Of a DNA stretch of 64,000 nucleotides, positions 10,408 through 31,655 are shown one piece after another; position 1 is the first letter of the stretch, and every line of letters starts with the position of its first letter. The stretch lies in assembly GCA_016861205.1 (NCBI GenBank), contig BOKX01000001.1:988758-1052757 (forward strand). The letters are read 5' to 3'. The stretch comes from Patescibacteria group bacterium (GTDB lineage: Bacteria > Patescibacteriota > Microgenomatia > UBA1400 > PJMF01). The notes beneath the pieces were generated by a model. The model did no database searches, was not told the DNA's origin, and worked only from the letters and a program-made list of their open reading frames with translations. A program made the translations under genes and the position numbers.

Positions 10408-11832
10408 TTAACTTTGGGCCCTGAAGGCAGTTACTAAAATTGTGTAATCCAAGATATTAATAACATTATCACAGTTTAGGTCGGCGGCGCTGCTAGCATT
10501 TCCACCAAGGTAAGCAGTAATAAGAGCGGTGTAGTCAAAGAGATTCACTCGGCCATCGCCAGTAATATCAGCCGTCTTGTTGCAGGTACCAGGACTGGCG
10601 CTAGGACTTGGATTCAAGCTTGGGCTGGGGCTAGGGTTGGCTGAAGCTGGTGGGGTAGGACAGGGTAAGAACTGACAGTTACGAGTTGCACTACGGCTGA
10701 CAAAGCTGCCATCTGGACATTGGAAAACATCAGCTGGACAAACCACTGGGCTGGGGCTAGGACTGCTGCTGACAATGATGCTCGGCGAAGGAATGACACT
10801 GGCTGACTGGAGGAACGGTGTTAGGCGAGCGTTAGTCAAGTTAATGGTACCCACAATTGCGCTTTGGTTATCAGAGGTCAAGCTAAGGGTGGGGTAGATG
10901 ACTGGATTGCCGATGGCGTGACTGCCGAAAGCATTACCACTGTAAAAGAGCCAACCACCTGGGTTTTGGCCGTTATAGGTCCGGACTTCGCTGACACTCC
11001 ATGTGTTGTTAACACGTTGGAAGTATATAAAGAGACGCATCTCAACACCTTGCTCTTGCCAGATCATTTCGAGGGTTTGGTTGCTACCGCTGCCTGGATT
11101 GCTTGATACTTGGAAAGCAGTGCCATTATCTGGAATACCGTGGAACGTTCGGTTGCCAATCTGGAGGTTGAAGTCATCAGCCACTAAGCGAGCGTACTGT
11201 GTCTCCCAAATAGCCGCGTGCACGATTGGTGAGGCGCTGGGTGAGGGAGTGGGTGCGGCGACGTTGAACGTGTACTGAGCAGTAAATACACTGCGGAGAA
11301 TGTCTTGGAGTGTGCTGTGTTCGATAGCTTTGCTTTGGCTGGCAGTAGGTTCTGGAACCAAGGTAAAAGAACCGGAAGCTGGGGCGGCATACGATAACGT
11401 GCCGACTGTTACATAGCTGGTACTCGAAAAAGGTTGCGTTGGGTTTTTGGTAATTAACCCTAATCTCAGATAGATGCCATTCTCTGAAGTGGTGATCTGA
11501 GGATTGGCTAGATCGAAGCGACCTGTGCTGACTGGAGTAAACGTCATTGGTGTGGTTGGATAGGTGCCGGTCATGTTGTACACCAACTGCAGACCATCTA
11601 TCTGTCGACCACCAGTGTTGACCTGAAGATTGGTAGTGATAGTTTGGCCGGGGGTGCCGGTTTGGTTGTTGGAGTTCCAGCGGACTTGAACAGGTCCTTG
11701 AGAAACACTAGCTTGATTGCGTGTGTCTTGACTAAAACGACTTAGGAAAACAGCAGCCATTAAACCCAGTAGTAATAGTAGTACTAAACTACCCATCACT
11801 ACCATGCGGAGTGGGATCTTCATGCGGCGCAT
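10408..11832 (-). CDS. Secreted protein with a C-terminal type-I dockerin domain. Also has an N-terminal cohesin-like region and a 4-Cys module.
   Basis: Signal peptide (MRRMKIPLRMVVMGSLVLLLLLGLMA). The C-terminus DITGDGRVNLFDYTALITAYLG…DLNCDNVINILDYTILVTAF contains two 22-residue Ca-binding dockerin repeats (D-x-N/T-x-D-G-x-V-N-x2-D-x-T-x-L). The preceding module is VVCPADVFQCPDGSFVSRSATRNCQFLPCP. Its stop is 3 nt from the next gene, so the two are likely an operon. Confidence 0.6.
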   Translation of the reverse strand: MRRMKIPLRMVVMGSLVLLLLLGLMAAVFLSRFSQDTRNQASVSQGPVQVRWNSNNQTGTPGQTITTNLQVNTGGRQIDGLQLVYNMTGTYPTTPMTFTPVSTGRFDLANPQITTSENGIYLRLGLITKNPTQPFSSTSYVTVGTLSYAAPASGSFTLVPEPTASQSKAIEHSTLQDILRSVFTAQYTFNVAAPTPSPSASPIVHAAIWETQYARLVADDFNLQIGNRTFHGIPDNGTAFQVSSNPGSGSNQTLEMIWQEQGVEMRLFIYFQRVNNTWSVSEVRTYNGQNPGGWLFYSGNAFGSHAIGNPVIYPTLSLTSDNQSAIVGTINLTNARLTPFLQSASVIPSPSIIVSSSPSPSPVVCPADVFQCPDGSFVSRSATRNCQFLPCPTPPASANPSPSPSLNPSPSASPGTCNKTADITGDGRVNLFDYTALITAYLGGNASSAADLNCDNVINILDYTILVTAFRAQS

Positions 11833-11964
11833 ACTTCATCTTAGACAGGTTGCCGTGTAAAATGCAATCACGGACTTACCGTGAGGGTGTATACTCTCTC
11901 AAGTTACTAAGCCCCGCCATTGGCGGGACAGGCCCCACCGTGTCCGGTGGGATGAGGAGATGTC

Positions 11965-16776: not shown

Positions 16777-16853
16777 CTGGCCAGCAGCTATCTTGGTAGA
16801 ACGTTGGTCTCCAAATGTTTTATATATTGGAGTCGTAATGATAAAATAAAGGG

Positions 16854-17300
16854 GTGCTCTGTGGGAGATGCAAACTAAACAAAGATATCAATAATTTCTC
16901 GCTAAAGAACAGAGAAAAAGGTCGGTATCATAGTGTTTGCAAGGCATGTCATTCTGAGTATAGAAGGCAGCATTATCTGAGTCACAAAGCGAAGTATCTG
17001 ACGAAGGCGATGCATTGGAATAAACGACAAAAAGAAGTATTAATCCAATATCTCTTTCAAAAGTTGTCGAATTCAAAATGCGTAGATTGTGGTGAAAAAG
17101 ATATTTTGGTTTTGGATTTTGACCACATCAAGGAAAAAGAGTTTAACATCGCTGTGCTATTTAAAAAAAGATGTGCCATAAAAACTCTTGAGAAAGAGTT
17201 GAACAAGTGTGAAGTCCGATGTGCCAACTGTCATCGAAGAAAAACGGCTAAAGAAATTGGTTCTTGGAAGTACAAGATGATAAATGAAATAGGGGCGTAG
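16854..17300 (+). CDS. HNH endonuclease (GTG start). Its last 10 nt overlap the 5' end of tRNA-Trp.
   Basis: CGRCKLNKD…CKAC and C-terminal …DFDHIKEKEFNIAV…NKCEVRCANCHRRK. The D-H-(N)-H catalytic motif is flanked by CxxC pairs. Low-GC, Lys-rich composition. Confidence 0.75.
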   Translation: MLCGRCKLNKDINNFSLKNREKGRYHSVCKACHSEYRRQHYLSHKAKYLTKAMHWNKRQKEVLIQYLFQKLSNSKCVDCGEKDILVLDFDHIKEKEFNIAVLFKKRCAIKTLEKELNKCEVRCANCHRRKTAKEIGSWKYKMINEIGA

Positions 17301-17363
17301 GTTAACGGTAGACCTGATCTCTCCAAAAGATCTAGTGAGGGTTCGACTCCTTCCGCCCCTGCA
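17291..17363 (+). tRNA. tRNA-Trp (anticodon CCA)
   Basis: Acceptor AGGGGCG/CGCCCCT, D arm GGTT-AACGGTA-GACC, anticodon stem GATCT/AGATC with loop CTCCAAA, T arm GAGGG-TTCGACT-CCTTC, discriminator G. Confidence 0.8.
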
Positions 17364-23503: not shown

Positions 23504-25210
23504 ATGGTTTTTGCAGAACTACCAGTCAATTCCGACTATTCGGAATTTCCGAATCAACCACAACAACTGATGCAGTATATGGTTGAGGGTTTGGTGCAGT
23601 GGTATCGGCGATACAACTTGAAGGTTGAGCATTTTCGTGATGTCAAACCAAGATTTATTGGCGAGTTAGAGCTTCAGCAAAAGCTCCGGACGAATCAGTT
23701 GCCGGCTGCTCATAATCCCAGTTTCGTTTACTTACTTAAAGATATTGTTTCCTATGTTGGTGACCAAGAATCGCTTGAAGCGTTGGCTGAGCGAATTTTA
23801 AAACCAAGTGATGAACTATTGGTAATGACAGCGATTGAGCGGTTGGTCGACAAAATTCCGCGTCCAAAGCGGTACCCAACAGACGATTTAGTATCGGAGT
23901 TAGCTGCTCGACTTGAGACTCGTTTGCCCCAAATCATCTTAGCTGGTTATGCGGATTTTATGGACCAGGCGGCAACCCGCCAAACTAAAATCGTGTCTGC
24001 TCTGCGGACAGAAATGATGGGATCAATTGGTCAGGCTGCAAGTGCATTTATTGATCTAGTTTCTGCCGAAGACCAAACCAATTTTTGGACTAACCATGAT
24101 GTGTCGTTAGCCCTGATTACTTTGCCAGAAGTGACGGGTCAGAACGATGAGTTGAGTTGGTCGCTGCGCGTTAATCCACAAGATGCTGCGAGCTGGTGGT
24201 GGCAAGCCGAACAACTGACCCAAGAAGATAATTTAACACTGTTGGATAAGTATCAGAAGTTGATGGAAGCTGAGCGGTTGAAGCCAGAGAACACACTTCG
24301 ATTGACAGGGGAGGCCGCCAGCGAGTTTAGTCAAAAGCTTTTGGATGACCCAGATTTACAGCCAATACTAGAATACTTGGTCATAAGCCAATGCTGGGAA
24401 ATTATGTGGGAGCGGTATCAGTCACTCTCATGGATTTTTCACCATGTGGCAAACAGCAACAACGAGCGAGTGCAGTTGGAAGTGCAAACGATGAACTTAG
24501 ACGTAGCAGTCAAAGGTTTTGAGTTGATTAAGTCTGCCACCCAGGAGGGCCGGCGTTTGCAGCTGGGGACAACCATGTTGTTCACAGCGGATCAAGTGAC
24601 CAGCCTGCGTTACCGACCGCTGGCAGTCGCCTTTGATGATACGCAAGAGATTCCCAAACCGCGGGCCCAGCAGCACCCACTTCAGGAGCGACTTGAACAA
24701 CCGTATGCGACGCATACAGTAGAACCACTACAGTTGTTTGAAGTTAGTTATGATGAGCAGCAACGAGTCGTTCGGTTTGAGTTGCCAGATCACCATCATA
24801 TAGTCTGGGTTAGGGTGACAGAGAATGGAATCATGGAGTACGCGGCTAACTCAGGAACAGATAGTAGTCAGTTGCAATTTTGCCGGCAACCGACTGCTTT
24901 TACTGCAGAGATGCGATATGTGGCGGATTTTTTCTCAAAAATGGCGATAACTGCTTATCAGCTTGATCCTATTGATTTTGAACAACACCATCGTGCGATC
25001 GACCGTAAGTATCGCCAGGTGCTAAAGCAATCTAGCCTGGAAAAATTCTTTGGAGTTCTGAACGTGAGCCAATTTGGCTCACTGTTCACTACCTACTTAC
25101 ATTTACACAATACAGTCATGTATCAGTTCTTTGTAACTGATCAACCAGGCAAGTTTAAACCGCTCAAAAATTTGGAACAACTTAAAGTTGTTGATCGTTC
25201 CCAAAACTAA
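23504..25210 (+). CDS. Hypothetical protein (568 aa)
   Basis: Long ORF with normal composition; no family recognised. Lies 48 nt upstream of the CobA-like gene on the same strand. Confidence 0.5.
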   Translation: MVFAELPVNSDYSEFPNQPQQLMQYMVEGLVQWYRRYNLKVEHFRDVKPRFIGELELQQKLRTNQLPAAHNPSFVYLLKDIVSYVGDQESLEALAERILKPSDELLVMTAIERLVDKIPRPKRYPTDDLVSELAARLETRLPQIILAGYADFMDQAATRQTKIVSALRTEMMGSIGQAASAFIDLVSAEDQTNFWTNHDVSLALITLPEVTGQNDELSWSLRVNPQDAASWWWQAEQLTQEDNLTLLDKYQKLMEAERLKPENTLRLTGEAASEFSQKLLDDPDLQPILEYLVISQCWEIMWERYQSLSWIFHHVANSNNERVQLEVQTMNLDVAVKGFELIKSATQEGRRLQLGTTMLFTADQVTSLRYRPLAVAFDDTQEIPKPRAQQHPLQERLEQPYATHTVEPLQLFEVSYDEQQRVVRFELPDHHHIVWVRVTENGIMEYAANSGTDSSQLQFCRQPTAFTAEMRYVADFFSKMAITAYQLDPIDFEQHHRAIDRKYRQVLKQSSLEKFFGVLNVSQFGSLFTTYLHLHNTVMYQFFVTDQPGKFKPLKNLEQLKVVDRSQN

Positions 25211-25257
25211 GAACTGCGGCCGACAAACACGTAGCTCACCTGTATACTCGGCCTTGT

Positions 25258-26256
25258 ATGATCGATGTTGAGCAGACGTACGTCAAAAATCCACTCAAGT
25301 ATGGGTATGAACTGCCCCCGGCATTATTTACTGATGTAATTGGTGGCACATTAGTTCGAGCTATCGGCAAAAATTGGGTGGTGGCGGTTACCAGCATCGA
25401 CCAAGACAAACTAACACCATGGGAGCGGCTGAGTGAGTTATTGGTCGATCCGAGCCAATTACTACTCTACAAAGTGACTAAATTACCGGTCAACATTGAC
25501 GCCAATCTAGTGATTGGTGAAGGAATGTCTGACCAGCGGCGAGCCATCCTACGGGCTCAGTCAAAATCAAATCATCAACATGTCGTGCTGATTGATCCAG
25601 ATGCGAATTATGATAACTATGATTTGATTTCGTTATTTAGCATTTTTAAACGAAGATTTGATACTGCTAGGGCGACCGCCATTATTGGTTTGGGTAAGGG
25701 CAAAACTACCACTGCTTTGGGCATGGCTCTGGAAGCTGTTTTACAAGGTAAGTCAGTCAAAATTGTCCAGTGGTTCAAGGAGCGGAACACCGGTGACCTG
25801 ACGTGGGCGATCAACGAGCATTTTTTCCCAGCCAAACTTAAAAAGCCAGAACTGATGGAGTTTTATCCTATGGGTTTAGGTTTTTTTGGTTCACCCAACA
25901 TGGACCGAGTTAAGGGTGAACAAGCCTATGCTCAACACCGTGCTAAGGCGTATGAAGGTCTCGAGCTTGCCAAAAAGTTGGTGTTTGAAACCAAGCCGGC
26001 CGTGATTGTGTTGGATGAACTACTGGACACGGTTGCTGAGATTGCCCGCAACATTGAGTACCCATTGATTGAGCTCGATAGCTTGAAGATTTTTTTGGCC
26101 GAGATTACTTCCCAAAACCACACCGAGGTGGTGGTGACCGGTCGTCGGACAATTCCCGAAATTGTGAAGTGGTTTAAACAATCGATCACCATTGATCAAG
26201 TCAAACACCCATGGGATGATGCTCACCAGGGTGCAGTATCAGGGCTTGATTACTAG
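25258..26256 (+). CDS. Two-domain protein: unknown N-terminal domain (about 140 aa) fused to a CobA/CobO/BtuR-type ATP:cob(I)alamin adenosyltransferase-like P-loop domain
   Basis: The C-terminal half aligns with E. coli BtuR across its length: IIGLGKGKTTTALGMALEAVLQGKSVKIVQWFK… (BtuR: FTGNGKGKTTAAFGTAARAVGHGKNVGVVQFIK), …VIVLDELLDTVA…HTEVVVTGRRTIPEIVKWFKQSITIDQVKHPWDDAHQGAVSGLDY (BtuR: …VVLDELTYMVA…HQTVIITGRGCHRDILDLADTVSELRPVKHAFDAGVKAQMGIDY). Confidence 0.6.
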   Translation: MIDVEQTYVKNPLKYGYELPPALFTDVIGGTLVRAIGKNWVVAVTSIDQDKLTPWERLSELLVDPSQLLLYKVTKLPVNIDANLVIGEGMSDQRRAILRAQSKSNHQHVVLIDPDANYDNYDLISLFSIFKRRFDTARATAIIGLGKGKTTTALGMALEAVLQGKSVKIVQWFKERNTGDLTWAINEHFFPAKLKKPELMEFYPMGLGFFGSPNMDRVKGEQAYAQHRAKAYEGLELAKKLVFETKPAVIVLDELLDTVAEIARNIEYPLIELDSLKIFLAEITSQNHTEVVVTGRRTIPEIVKWFKQSITIDQVKHPWDDAHQGAVSGLDY

Positions 26257-26259
26257 GCT

Positions 26260-27936
26260 GTGAGTGTGTTTACCTACAGTATGCGTCAGCATATCGACCG
26301 TTTGATTCCGGCTAAGTGGCAACAAGCCTGGGTGATTGCCCTCATTGTTTTCGTAGTGTACTTGCCATCGTTCTGGAACACTTTCGTGTGGGATGACGAG
26401 CAGTTTATTCAAAGGAATTTGTTTACCACCTCAGTTCGCTATATTCCTCAAATTTTTACCACGAACACCATTGCCGGGGCTGGCGAGTTTAGCAATTACT
26501 ATCGACCGTTCACCACACTCAGTTTCTTAGTTGATAGGTTGATTTGGGGGTTGCGACCATTTGGCTTTCACTTGACGAACACCGCTTTGCACGCTGGGGC
26601 TGCGGTACTCCTTTTTTTCTACTTGTCACGACTTGGTGTTAGGCGGTCGGCAGCTTGGTGGTTGGCGTTGGCTTTTGGTCTCAATCCTTTGCAAACTGAG
26701 GCGGTGGTGTACATGAACTCTCGAGGTGATTCATGGTATGTGCTGTGGCTTATGGCGGCGTTGTTGCTGGCGTTGCGGTGGCTAACAACAGTTGATTGGC
26801 GGTGGTACGTGGCTAGTTTATGTTGTTTTGTGGTTGCCATTTTGAGTAAAGAAATTGCAGTTGCGGGGGCTGGTTTGCTAGGGCTGACCTATCTGCATAT
26901 TTGGTTGAGAGGAGGAGACGGTAGTAAAGTATGGTCAAACAAATGGTGGATCAAAACACGGTGGGGTTGGGCATTGATTTTGGGTTGGGGCAGCGTGGTT
27001 ATCGGATATGTGGGTTTGCGGTTAACTGTTCTTAGCTTTGGGAATTTTCTCAATTTCTATCAGGGGACCAATCTATATACAGATAGTTTGGTGGTGAGAT
27101 TGGTCATGTTTTCGCGGGCGTTGTTTGAGTACTGGCGGTTGTTGATTTTACCGTACCCGCTGCACATGGAGCGTGGCATACCGTTGATAACCGAGTGGTG
27201 GAGTTGGCCCGTGTGGGGAGCGATTTTAGTGGTGGCGAGTGTATTAGGGCTTGGTTGGTGGGAGTGGCGCCAAACCCGACAATCTTGGATTTGGTTTGGC
27301 TTGGCCTGGTTTTTTGTCATGCTTGGACCAGTGTCTGGGGTAGTCCCGATTAATGGCTTGTTGTATGAACACTGGCTCTACTTGCCAATGGTAGGCTGGT
27401 GGATCATGGTCGGTCGAGTCATGCAACTGAGTTTGCAACGACTGCAACGGCAGTGGCTGGACCGAGCAATGAGTTGGCTGGTGGTAATGGTGTTTGTGAT
27501 CTGGACAGGATTGACGATCAGACAAAACTGGATCTGGCGATCTCCATTGAGTTTATACCCGTATACTCTCCAGTTTGCCCAAACCGCTCGCCTCCACAAT
27601 AATCTGGCGATGGCCTATGCAGACGCTGGTGAGGTGGGTCAGGCGATTCATCATTACCAACAAGCGATTGCGCTGGATGATGGTTATCCACAAACCCACT
27701 ACAATCTGGGGCGCACCTATCTAGAACTTAATCAGGTACAACAGGCAGAGGTCGAGTTTAAACGAGCGCTGGAAATTAATCCCCGGTTTGATTTGGCCAA
27801 AGTGGCGTTGCTCGAGTTAGCACTCGAAGCGGAGAACTGGCCGCTCGCCAACCAGTACCTCGATGAGTTGCTTCAACTTTATCCGCGAGAGCCGCAATTA
27901 TTGCAGTTGAAAACTCAGTTGAAAGCCAAGCTATAA
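26260..27936 (+). CDS. Polytopic GT-C-type glycosyltransferase-like membrane protein (PMT/ArnT-like) with C-terminal TPR repeats
   Basis: More than 10 predicted TM helices. A DE motif in the first extracytoplasmic loop (WNTFVWDDEQF) as in GT39/GT83 enzymes. C-terminal TPR units (…LAMAYADAGEVGQAIHHYQQAIALD…NLGRTYLEL…). Confidence 0.55.
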   Translation: MSVFTYSMRQHIDRLIPAKWQQAWVIALIVFVVYLPSFWNTFVWDDEQFIQRNLFTTSVRYIPQIFTTNTIAGAGEFSNYYRPFTTLSFLVDRLIWGLRPFGFHLTNTALHAGAAVLLFFYLSRLGVRRSAAWWLALAFGLNPLQTEAVVYMNSRGDSWYVLWLMAALLLALRWLTTVDWRWYVASLCCFVVAILSKEIAVAGAGLLGLTYLHIWLRGGDGSKVWSNKWWIKTRWGWALILGWGSVVIGYVGLRLTVLSFGNFLNFYQGTNLYTDSLVVRLVMFSRALFEYWRLLILPYPLHMERGIPLITEWWSWPVWGAILVVASVLGLGWWEWRQTRQSWIWFGLAWFFVMLGPVSGVVPINGLLYEHWLYLPMVGWWIMVGRVMQLSLQRLQRQWLDRAMSWLVVMVFVIWTGLTIRQNWIWRSPLSLYPYTLQFAQTARLHNNLAMAYADAGEVGQAIHHYQQAIALDDGYPQTHYNLGRTYLELNQVQQAEVEFKRALEINPRFDLAKVALLELALEAENWPLANQYLDELLQLYPREPQLLQLKTQLKAKL

Positions 27937-27942
27937 TGCGAG

Positions 27943-29019
27943 ATGCAGAAAACTTGGCAACGTTTGAGTCAACAACCTCAGCTACAAGCACCATTTCGTG
28001 TTCGTGAAGTGGTGATTGATACGATTCGAGGCTTTTTTAAAACCCAAGACTTTTTGGAAGTTGAGACCCCACTGTTGGTCCAACGGCCCAGCACCGAGAC
28101 TTTTTTGGATTTTTTTGGATCTGAGTTGCGGATGGCCGAAGGCCAGCGTCGACCGGGTTTTTTGACTACTAGTCCTGAGTACGCCATGAAGAAAATTTTA
28201 GTGGCGGGTTTTCCCAGAGTGTTTCAAGTCTGCAAAAGTTTCCGTAACGGGGAAGGCAGGAGCCCAAAGCACAATCCCGAGTTTACTATTTTGGAGTGGT
28301 ATCGCACCCAAGCCGATTACACCGATATCATGAGGGACTGCGAAGAGCTGATGCTCGAGTTGGTAGCAGCGGTTAACGAGTGGCGTGGTGAGGCAGTTAT
28401 GCCCGATGTGGAGCCTACTTTGCAGTATCAAGGGCGAACCTATCACCTGAATGCACCCTGGCCGCGACTGAGTGTGGCTGAGGCGTTTGAACAGTTTGCG
28501 GGGATTGAAGTTGAGGAACTCTTGGACGAGGTGGCGCTGCCCAAGCGAGCAGCGACGAAGGGATACCAAGTGACTGATGCCACTTCTTGGGAACAAGCCT
28601 ATCATCAAATATTTTTGAATGAGGTCGAGCCAGCGTTAACGCAGTTTGATCGACCGGTGTTCTTGTACGACTATCCAACCAGCCAAGCCGCGCTGTCGCG
28701 CCGGAAAGCTGATGATCCGCGGTTTGCAGAACGGTTTGAGTTGTATCTGGGTGGCATTGAGTTGGGAAACGCATTTTCTGAATTGATTGATGCTGATGAA
28801 CAGGAAGCACGGCTTAAAGCTGACCTGGAACTTCGCCGAAAGGAACAGCGTCCGCCGTTCGAACTCGATACCGACTTTATTGAAGCCTTGCGACTGGGGA
28901 TGCCGCCGACAGGTGGTATAGCAGTAGGGGTGGATCGGTTGGTAATGCTGCTGGCCGATGTGCCAAGCATTAAAGACACATTGTTCTTCCCAGTGGAAGA
29001 TGTGTTTGATCTCGAGTAA
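27943..29019 (+). CDS. epmA: Elongation factor P--(R)-beta-lysine ligase (EpmA/PoxA/GenX; LysRS-like catalytic domain without an anticodon-binding domain)
   Basis: Class II aaRS motifs and an EpmA-specific alignment with E. coli EpmA: TSPEYAMKKILVAGFPRVFQVCKSFRNGEGRSPKHNPEFTILEWY, AERFELYLGGIELGNAFSELIDADEQ, GMPPTGGIAVGVDRLVMLLAD. 358 aa. Immediately upstream of efp. Confidence 0.85.
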   Translation: MQKTWQRLSQQPQLQAPFRVREVVIDTIRGFFKTQDFLEVETPLLVQRPSTETFLDFFGSELRMAEGQRRPGFLTTSPEYAMKKILVAGFPRVFQVCKSFRNGEGRSPKHNPEFTILEWYRTQADYTDIMRDCEELMLELVAAVNEWRGEAVMPDVEPTLQYQGRTYHLNAPWPRLSVAEAFEQFAGIEVEELLDEVALPKRAATKGYQVTDATSWEQAYHQIFLNEVEPALTQFDRPVFLYDYPTSQAALSRRKADDPRFAERFELYLGGIELGNAFSELIDADEQEARLKADLELRRKEQRPPFELDTDFIEALRLGMPPTGGIAVGVDRLVMLLADVPSIKDTLFFPVEDVFDLE

Positions 29020-29039
29020 AAGTGGTATAATACACCCCT

Positions 29040-29609
29040 ATGGCAACAATCAAAGGCGGAAACATCACCAAAGGTAACTACATTTTGTTCAAGGGTGCCC
29101 CTTGGCTTGTCACGAAAACCGAGTTCGTTAGTCCGGGCAAAGGCTCTGCTTTCACTCGAGCGAAACTCAAAAACGCTCGAACTGGTGCTTCCCAAGAGTT
29201 CACGTTCAAATCGACCGAAACAATTGAAGAGCTGGATGTTTCCAGCCGTGAAATGCAGTTCTTATATCTGGATGGCAGTGACGCAGTGTTCATGGATCCA
29301 CGTAGTTATGAACAAGTCTCAGTGCCAGTTGATCTGCTCGATGGCCGTGAAGGTTTCTTGACTCCAGACATCACCGTGTACATTTTGTTTTACAACGAAG
29401 CCGCCATTGGGGTGCGTTTGCCAGCTAGTGTCAAACTCAAAGTCACGTATGCTGAAGATGCCACCGCTGGTAACCGCGTCAATGCTCCCAAGAAGCCAGT
29501 CACGGTTGAAACCGGCTTGATTGTTCAAGCGCCACTGTTCATTAAAGTAGGTGACGTCATCAGTATCGAAACTGATGGTGGCCAATACCAGTCGCGCGTT
29601 AACGAGTAA
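29040..29609 (+). CDS. efp: Elongation factor P
   Basis: 189 aa, MATIKGGNITKGNYILFKGAPWLVTKTEFVSPGKGSAF… The PGKG loop lysine is the EpmA substrate position. Three OB-like domains. Confidence 0.9.
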   Translation: MATIKGGNITKGNYILFKGAPWLVTKTEFVSPGKGSAFTRAKLKNARTGASQEFTFKSTETIEELDVSSREMQFLYLDGSDAVFMDPRSYEQVSVPVDLLDGREGFLTPDITVYILFYNEAAIGVRLPASVKLKVTYAEDATAGNRVNAPKKPVTVETGLIVQAPLFIKVGDVISIETDGGQYQSRVNE

Positions 29610-31593: not shown

Positions 31594-31655
31594 AGATGCA
31601 TTGTGTCATAATTTACCTCGAGTGGCAAGCTTGTACCATTTTGATATAATTAGGT

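Follow-up and report, generated by a model that had tools for sequence, protein, structure and literature searches.

An epmA–efp gene pair in a Microgenomatia genome: predicted β-lysylation of EF-P and the likely place of epmB

The 64-kb window, by which we mean the whole stretch of DNA analysed here, encodes EpmA and elongation factor P (EF-P) side by side and has no epmB. The question raised by this locus is whether the two proteins belong to the standard EpmA/EF-P system and where the β-lysine would come from. In our judgement the standard pathway is probably at work, EpmA β-lysylating EF-P with β-lysine from an EpmB-like enzyme encoded outside the window. That enzyme, a KamA-family lysine 2,3-aminomutase, would make (R)-β-lysine, which EpmA would ligate onto the ε-amino group of Lys34 of EF-P; the modified loop would then reach the peptidyl-transferase centre and relieve ribosome stalling at polyproline motifs. 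We infer this chemistry, and likewise that this genome has an epmB.

Layout and conservation of the epmA–efp pair

The initial annotation placed epmA directly upstream of efp, and both open reading frames lie where it put them, on the + strand with a spacer of 20 nt. The genes and the promoter-like elements before them are as follows.

27932-27937, + strand: TATAAT hexamer that may serve as the -10 box of a leaderless transcript; the epmA ATG follows after 5 nt
27943-29019, + strand: epmA, predicted EF-P-lysine (R)-β-lysine ligase, a 358-aa ORF with an ATG start
29023-29031, + strand: TGgTATAAT, extended -10-like element (putative promoter); the efp ATG follows 8 nt after its end
29040-29609, + strand: efp, elongation factor P with three domains, a 189-aa ORF

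The TATAAT upstream of epmA overlaps the stop codon of the preceding TPR gene, the element of efp sits inside the 20-nt spacer, and no Shine-Dalgarno sequence is visible upstream of the efp ATG. The window contains 15 exact TATAAT hexamers, eight of which lie 5–11 nt ahead of the start ATG of an ORF of at least 120 aa [+ strand: 27932-27937 (epmA), 29026-29031 (efp) and 31645-31650; - strand: 52355, 35941, 22879, 14291 and 5448], and at none of these eight genes is a Shine-Dalgarno sequence visible. The pattern suggests that leaderless mRNAs may be widespread in this organism and that epmA and efp may have separate promoters.

A scan of GTDB species genomes identifies 80 related loci (best match 69% identical) in Pace-, Woese-, Gottesman- and Amesbacteria-type genomes (Microgenomatia). 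In 71 of these epmA-centred loci efp is present, adjoining epmA in most, and the exceptions are mostly loci that stop at the end of a contig. Across the 80 loci conservation is limited to epmA and efp, other neighbours being shared no further than the closest relative (L009); a third conserved gene that might replace EpmB was considered and rejected for this reason. Two genes upstream of epmA stands a CobA/CobO/BtuR-like gene (25195-26256, + strand). In its 353-aa product the match to PF02572 (ATP:corrinoid adenosyltransferase) covers the C-terminal half. Among the relatives only the closest has this gene, which is thus not a conserved partner of the pair.

The close homologues of the window EpmA are without exception from Patescibacteria/CPR MAGs, and NCBI already gives some of them the name ‘EF-P lysine aminoacylase EpmA/GenX’. 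The closed chromosomes or largest contigs of their genomes measure about 1.0–1.3 Mb, consistent with the reduced genome that had been proposed for this organism. Many of the CPR-type epmA–efp records in GTDB (L009, L011, L012, L014 and others) are titled ‘uncultured Pseudomonadales/Gammaproteobacteria bacterium’; these titles (binchicken TPA assemblies) seem to be placeholders or mistaken taxonomic labels. The rest of the window holds housekeeping genes, including those for ThrRS, MreB, PBP2, DprA, TopA, NadE, ThyA and MutL, as well as four tRNAs and many proteins without a Pfam match. On the - strand (10411-11835) a 475-aa protein has a dockerin type I domain at its C terminus (PF00404, 27.5 bits), which is unusual for CPR. 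Of the 32 two-kb intervals of the window, 31 have a positive GC skew, and the cumulative skew climbs steadily over the 64 kb. A strong compositional asymmetry between the strands is reported for a Microgenomates genome (PMC7143001).

Our literature search found no paper linking EF-P modification to CPR, and a broad EF-P survey leaves Patescibacteria unmentioned (PMC11388002). Both proteins already receive their names from automated annotation (NCBI PGAP, JGI), and for that reason the pair is no discovery in itself; it is a correct, routine annotation within the known EpmA/EF-P system. Its interest is that a large CPR clade retains the system as a tight epmA–efp pair whose catalytic and gating residues are intact. 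The sole result that would raise its significance is an EpmA without any KamA-family gene genome-wide.

The source of β-lysine

The initial annotation reported epmB to be missing from the 64 kb. This holds: tblastn with E. coli EpmB and with nine CPR-type EpmB proteins gives zero matches in the window, that is, over the 28 kb upstream and 34 kb downstream of the pair, and no ORF of at least 100 aa in the window has a CxxxCxxC motif besides one Cys-rich ORF of 151 aa. This ORF (16845-17300, + strand; motif CEVRCANC) ends right at the tRNA-Trp gene (17291-17362) and is smaller than radical-SAM proteins. EpmC, which had also been proposed as a target, gave zero tblastn matches in the window and in 1.6 Mb of CPR loci. 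This hydroxylase is optional, occurs in only some Gammaproteobacteria and is not required for the EpmA/EF-P class (PMC11388002).

The absence of epmB from the 64 kb would fit a lineage that has EpmA and EF-P but no EpmB, and that takes β-lysine from its host or environment or uses α-lysine or another amine at low efficiency. CPR bacteria have a reduced metabolism and depend on hosts, which also speaks for such a lineage. We nevertheless regard it as unlikely. Absence of epmB from the window is no evidence of its absence from the genome: the window is only about 5–6% of a roughly 1-Mb genome, and the result says little because relatives carry epmB beside the pair or in neighbourhoods that the window does not cover. 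None of the 24 genes that neighbour epmB in relatives is present in the window, so the syntenic sites of epmB lie outside it.

Relatives in the class Microgenomatia carry a KamA-family EpmB-like gene that is either linked or unlinked to epmA–efp. In one of the 80 loci (L029) a 358-aa KamA-family gene lies 1 kb upstream of epmA, and its product used as a query retrieves more than 130 CPR-type homologues. EpmB-like genes occur 0.7–5 kb from the pair in three relatives (L029, L089 and L090). Relatives with an EpmA 62–63% identical to that of the window do encode epmB, which argues against an EpmB-less lineage: in GCA_052035325.1 (EpmA 62% identical) epmB is 5 kb from epmA–efp and on a Logan contig (63% identical) it is 0.7 kb away. 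A short metagenome contig (L155) has epmA, efp and epmB in a row. In five cases the matches to EpmA and EpmB fall on longest contigs of equal size, including one of 1,227,131 bp. Unlinked CPR epmB genes are found in two arrangements, dnaJ-x-epmB-nusA-infB and the recurrent typA-radC-PDDEXK-epmB-rluD-like-YibE_F. The second block, with typA/bipA, radC, PD-(D/E)XK, an RluD-like pseudouridine synthase and YibE_F, is seen at L089 5803-11053, L097 6479-11816, L108 3885-6800 and L106 1239-4226.

Besides the absence of epmB from the window, three observations on epmB count against the standard pathway. The first is that only one of the 80 related genomes has an epmB less than about 10 kb away from epmA and the other 79 do not, a count that would favour an EpmB-less lineage. 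It is uninformative, however, because about 1.2 chance matches are expected anyway in the 1.24 Mb of flanking sequence if each roughly 1-Mb genome has one randomly placed copy. The second, which likewise favours an EpmB-less lineage, is that the organism's own epmB was not found. The exact window EpmA is present on Logan contigs of samples DRR258780-2, SRR23814898-9 and SRR27676189, and candidate EpmBs were ranked on two measures, resemblance to the EpmBs of the closest relatives and a GC-like amino-acid composition; the six candidates (P0178, P0164, P0241, P0165, P0192 and P0210) do not include the organism's own, all being from other samples. The third is that TIGR00238, the broad KamA-family model, is the only one whose cut-off the CPR EpmB-like proteins exceed. 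Their highest score is with TIGR03822 and the next with TIGR03821 (the EpmB equivalog; about 260 bits, cut-off 369), below both equivalog cut-offs. Three of the CPR EpmB/KamA homologues, P0157 (482 aa), P0160 (468 aa) and P0163 (483 aa), have an extra PF01687 domain and are aminomutase-flavokinase (riboflavin kinase) fusions. Most of the genes retrieved by a metagenome scan with a CPR EpmB profile were KamA genes from outside CPR, and the scan was of no use for co-occurrence in CPR.

Residues of EpmA itself bear on the choice of substrate. In E. coli EpmA, A298 supports activation of (R)-β-lysine and the change A298G turns the enzyme to α-lysine (bioRxiv 10.64898/2026.07.07.736966). The corresponding codon of the window epmA is:

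28921-28923, + strand: Ala327 codon (= E. coli EpmA A298; the α/β-lysine gate), located by the translation PTGGIAVGVDR and by alignment columns

In the alignment the gate position is Ala in 119 of 119 CPR homologues and in 29 of 29 non-CPR EpmAs (E. coli EpmA and 28 from metagenome loci), and Gly in four of four LysRS. We mapped onto the window EpmA fifteen residues of E. coli LysU, which we take to be its Lys/ATP-binding active-site residues. All fifteen are kept, and the replacement of LysU G476 by A327 is the sole change near them. By this comparison the window EpmA carries the β-lysine signature. The strict conservation of the gate Ala disfavours use of α-lysine by EpmA.

The initial annotation left two options for the missing epmB, that it lies elsewhere or that EpmA uses α-lysine or another substrate; the former is favoured, since relatives carry the gene, and α-lysine is disfavoured by the conserved gate. 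It is doubtful, in fact rather improbable, that a lysine 2,3-aminomutase is truly missing from this lineage of Microgenomatia, and perhaps from many of the CPR genomes that carry epmA–efp. If it were, activation of EF-P would depend on β-lysine from the host or community or on a different EpmA substrate, and translation of polyproline proteins would be tied to the symbiotic lifestyle. A lack of the aminomutase in many epmA-bearing CPR genomes would make EF-P activation dependent on an external metabolite, which no finding here requires.

The EF-P loop and the class of the 358-aa protein

The product of efp exceeds the cut-offs of TIGR00038 (199.4 bits, cut-off 185.8) and NF001810 (204.7 bits, cut-off 161) and has the domains PF08207, PF01132 and PF09285. 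It aligns with E. coli EF-P without a single gap (35% identity), so its K34 matches E. coli K34:

29139-29141, + strand: EF-P Lys34 codon, at the loop tip (loop VSPGKGSAF, aligned to E. coli K34), predicted β-lysyl acceptor

The loop SPGKGSAF with Lys at the modified position had been read correctly from the start, as had the assignment to the Lys34 type. A PGKG(S/A) loop with a Lys tip is found in 78 of 78 EF-Ps from CPR loci, nearly all of them adjoining epmA, and the Arg32/EarP type is excluded because the tip is Lys and not Arg. Bacillus EF-P also has a PGKG loop, and the closest solved structure to the window EF-P is entry 6rji, ahead of E. coli EF-P. Both points would suit an EF-P that is unmodified or modified otherwise (for example with 5-aminopentanol, as in Firmicutes) beside a vestigial EpmA. 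This is very unlikely: the EpmA is intact with every catalytic residue conserved, and across a wide clade it is kept next to efp at 41–69% identity to the window EpmA, which indicates purifying selection. Modification of Lys34 by EpmA remains our reading of the pair.

The 358-aa protein exceeds the cut-offs of both EpmA equivalog models among the NCBIfam HMMs (TIGR00462, 339.2 bits, cut-off 286.9; NF006828, 283.6 bits, cut-off 264). The LysRS models cover no more of it than the catalytic domain and all score well below their cut-offs, the best of them with 284 bits against 339 bits for the EpmA profile on the same domain. Its sole Pfam domain is PF00152 (class II catalytic core, residues 5-351); no anticodon-binding domain is detected by Pfam, and the protein aligns to LysRS residues from about 184 to 499. 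Identity to E. coli EpmA is 36%. In pairwise phmmer comparisons with PDB sequences LysRS catalytic domains (203 bits) come slightly above E. coli EpmA (184 bits), a further point against the standard pathway, and the placement between EpmA and LysRS was therefore tested. The window protein has 12 derived residues in common with E. coli EpmA and 8 with LysRS.

A first NJ tree (342 columns, 200 bootstraps), built from E. coli EpmA, 22 CPR proteins and the catalytic domains of four LysRS with AspRS/AsnRS as the outgroup, joins the CPR proteins with E. coli EpmA in 93% of bootstraps, recovers LysRS in 98.5% and joins CPR with LysRS in 4.5%. The second added 28 non-CPR EpmAs from metagenome loci with an EpmB-like match, most of them with efp, which came from the metagenome scan described above; here the clade of all EpmAs has 77% support against 16% for CPR with LysRS. 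Both are simple NJ trees whose LysRS sampling is small (four catalytic domains), and this too counts against the standard pathway. A bona fide LysRS for the tree was sought in the CPR loci by tblastn with E. coli LysS, and none was found.

On these sequence comparisons the 358-aa protein belongs to the EpmA family, within a deep branch formed by CPR proteins. Its naming as EpmA in the initial annotation is supported by the equivalog HMMs, the trees, the gate Ala and the association with efp in relatives, and the grouping with a truncated LysRS that would have spoken against this name is not seen, the EpmA clade having 93% and 77% support. That the protein is instead a LysRS that was truncated independently and whose function has nothing to do with EF-P, such as activating an amino acid for another acceptor, is the least probable of the alternatives, the slight phmmer preference for LysRS being set against the higher EpmA profile score, the clustering with EpmA in the NJ trees, the derived residues in common with E. 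coli EpmA, the β-lysine gate Ala, the efp adjacency kept in relatives and the EpmB-like gene beside epmA–efp in L029, L089 and L090.

Two homologues stand out. A metagenome contig that looks non-CPR (Ga0233430_1018200, GC 57%; L116 683-3575) has an epmA-epmB-efp cluster whose EpmA, 42% identical to that of the window, branches with the CPR clade and not with proteobacterial-type EpmAs; it could bridge these groups. On a Patescibacteria contig (L083 3076-4320) the tblastn alignment with E. coli LysS begins at LysS residue 67 and reaches about 70 codons further upstream than the match to EpmA, and this EpmA homologue may have an N-terminal extension.

Comparison with known systems

The closest counterpart is the EpmA (YjeA/PoxA/GenX)–EpmB (YjeK)–EF-P K34 pathway of E. 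coli and Salmonella. As there, a catalytic LysRS paralogue without an anticodon-binding domain has all mapped Lys/ATP-binding residues and Ala at the A298 gate, EF-P has Lys34 in a PGKG loop, and a KamA-family aminomutase is encoded in CPR relatives, at times in the same cluster. The window proteins are only 36% (EpmA) and 35% (EF-P) identical to those of E. coli, and the CPR EpmAs form their own deep branch in the family. The window EpmA is about 30 aa longer than E. coli EpmA between motifs 2 and 3. Gene order also differs: epmA is fixed beside efp here, whereas in E. coli epmB adjoins efp and epmA is about 6 kb away. Unlike in E. coli and Salmonella, EpmC was not found in the window or in the 1.6 Mb of CPR loci.

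With class II LysRS (LysS/LysU) the window EpmA has in common the catalytic fold and the lysine/ATP-binding residues, at 31% identity over the catalytic domain. It differs in having no N-terminal anticodon-binding OB domain, in having Ala in place of LysU G476, in scoring below all LysRS cut-offs and in lying outside the LysRS clade. The CPR EpmB-like proteins, at about 350 aa and with the CxxxCxxC motif CRFCFRR, resemble the short KamA aminomutases of the TIGR03822 ‘AblA_like_2’/EpmB type; they differ from the TIGR03822 and TIGR03821 families in falling below the cut-offs and passing only the general KamA model, and none is encoded in the window. The window EF-P has a Lys-tip loop like that of the Bacillus subtilis EF-P modified with 5-aminopentanol at K32, but here the adjoining conserved EpmA points to β-lysylation. 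The same Lys at the loop tip, where the EarP type has the Arg32 that is rhamnosylated, sets the window EF-P apart from that type.
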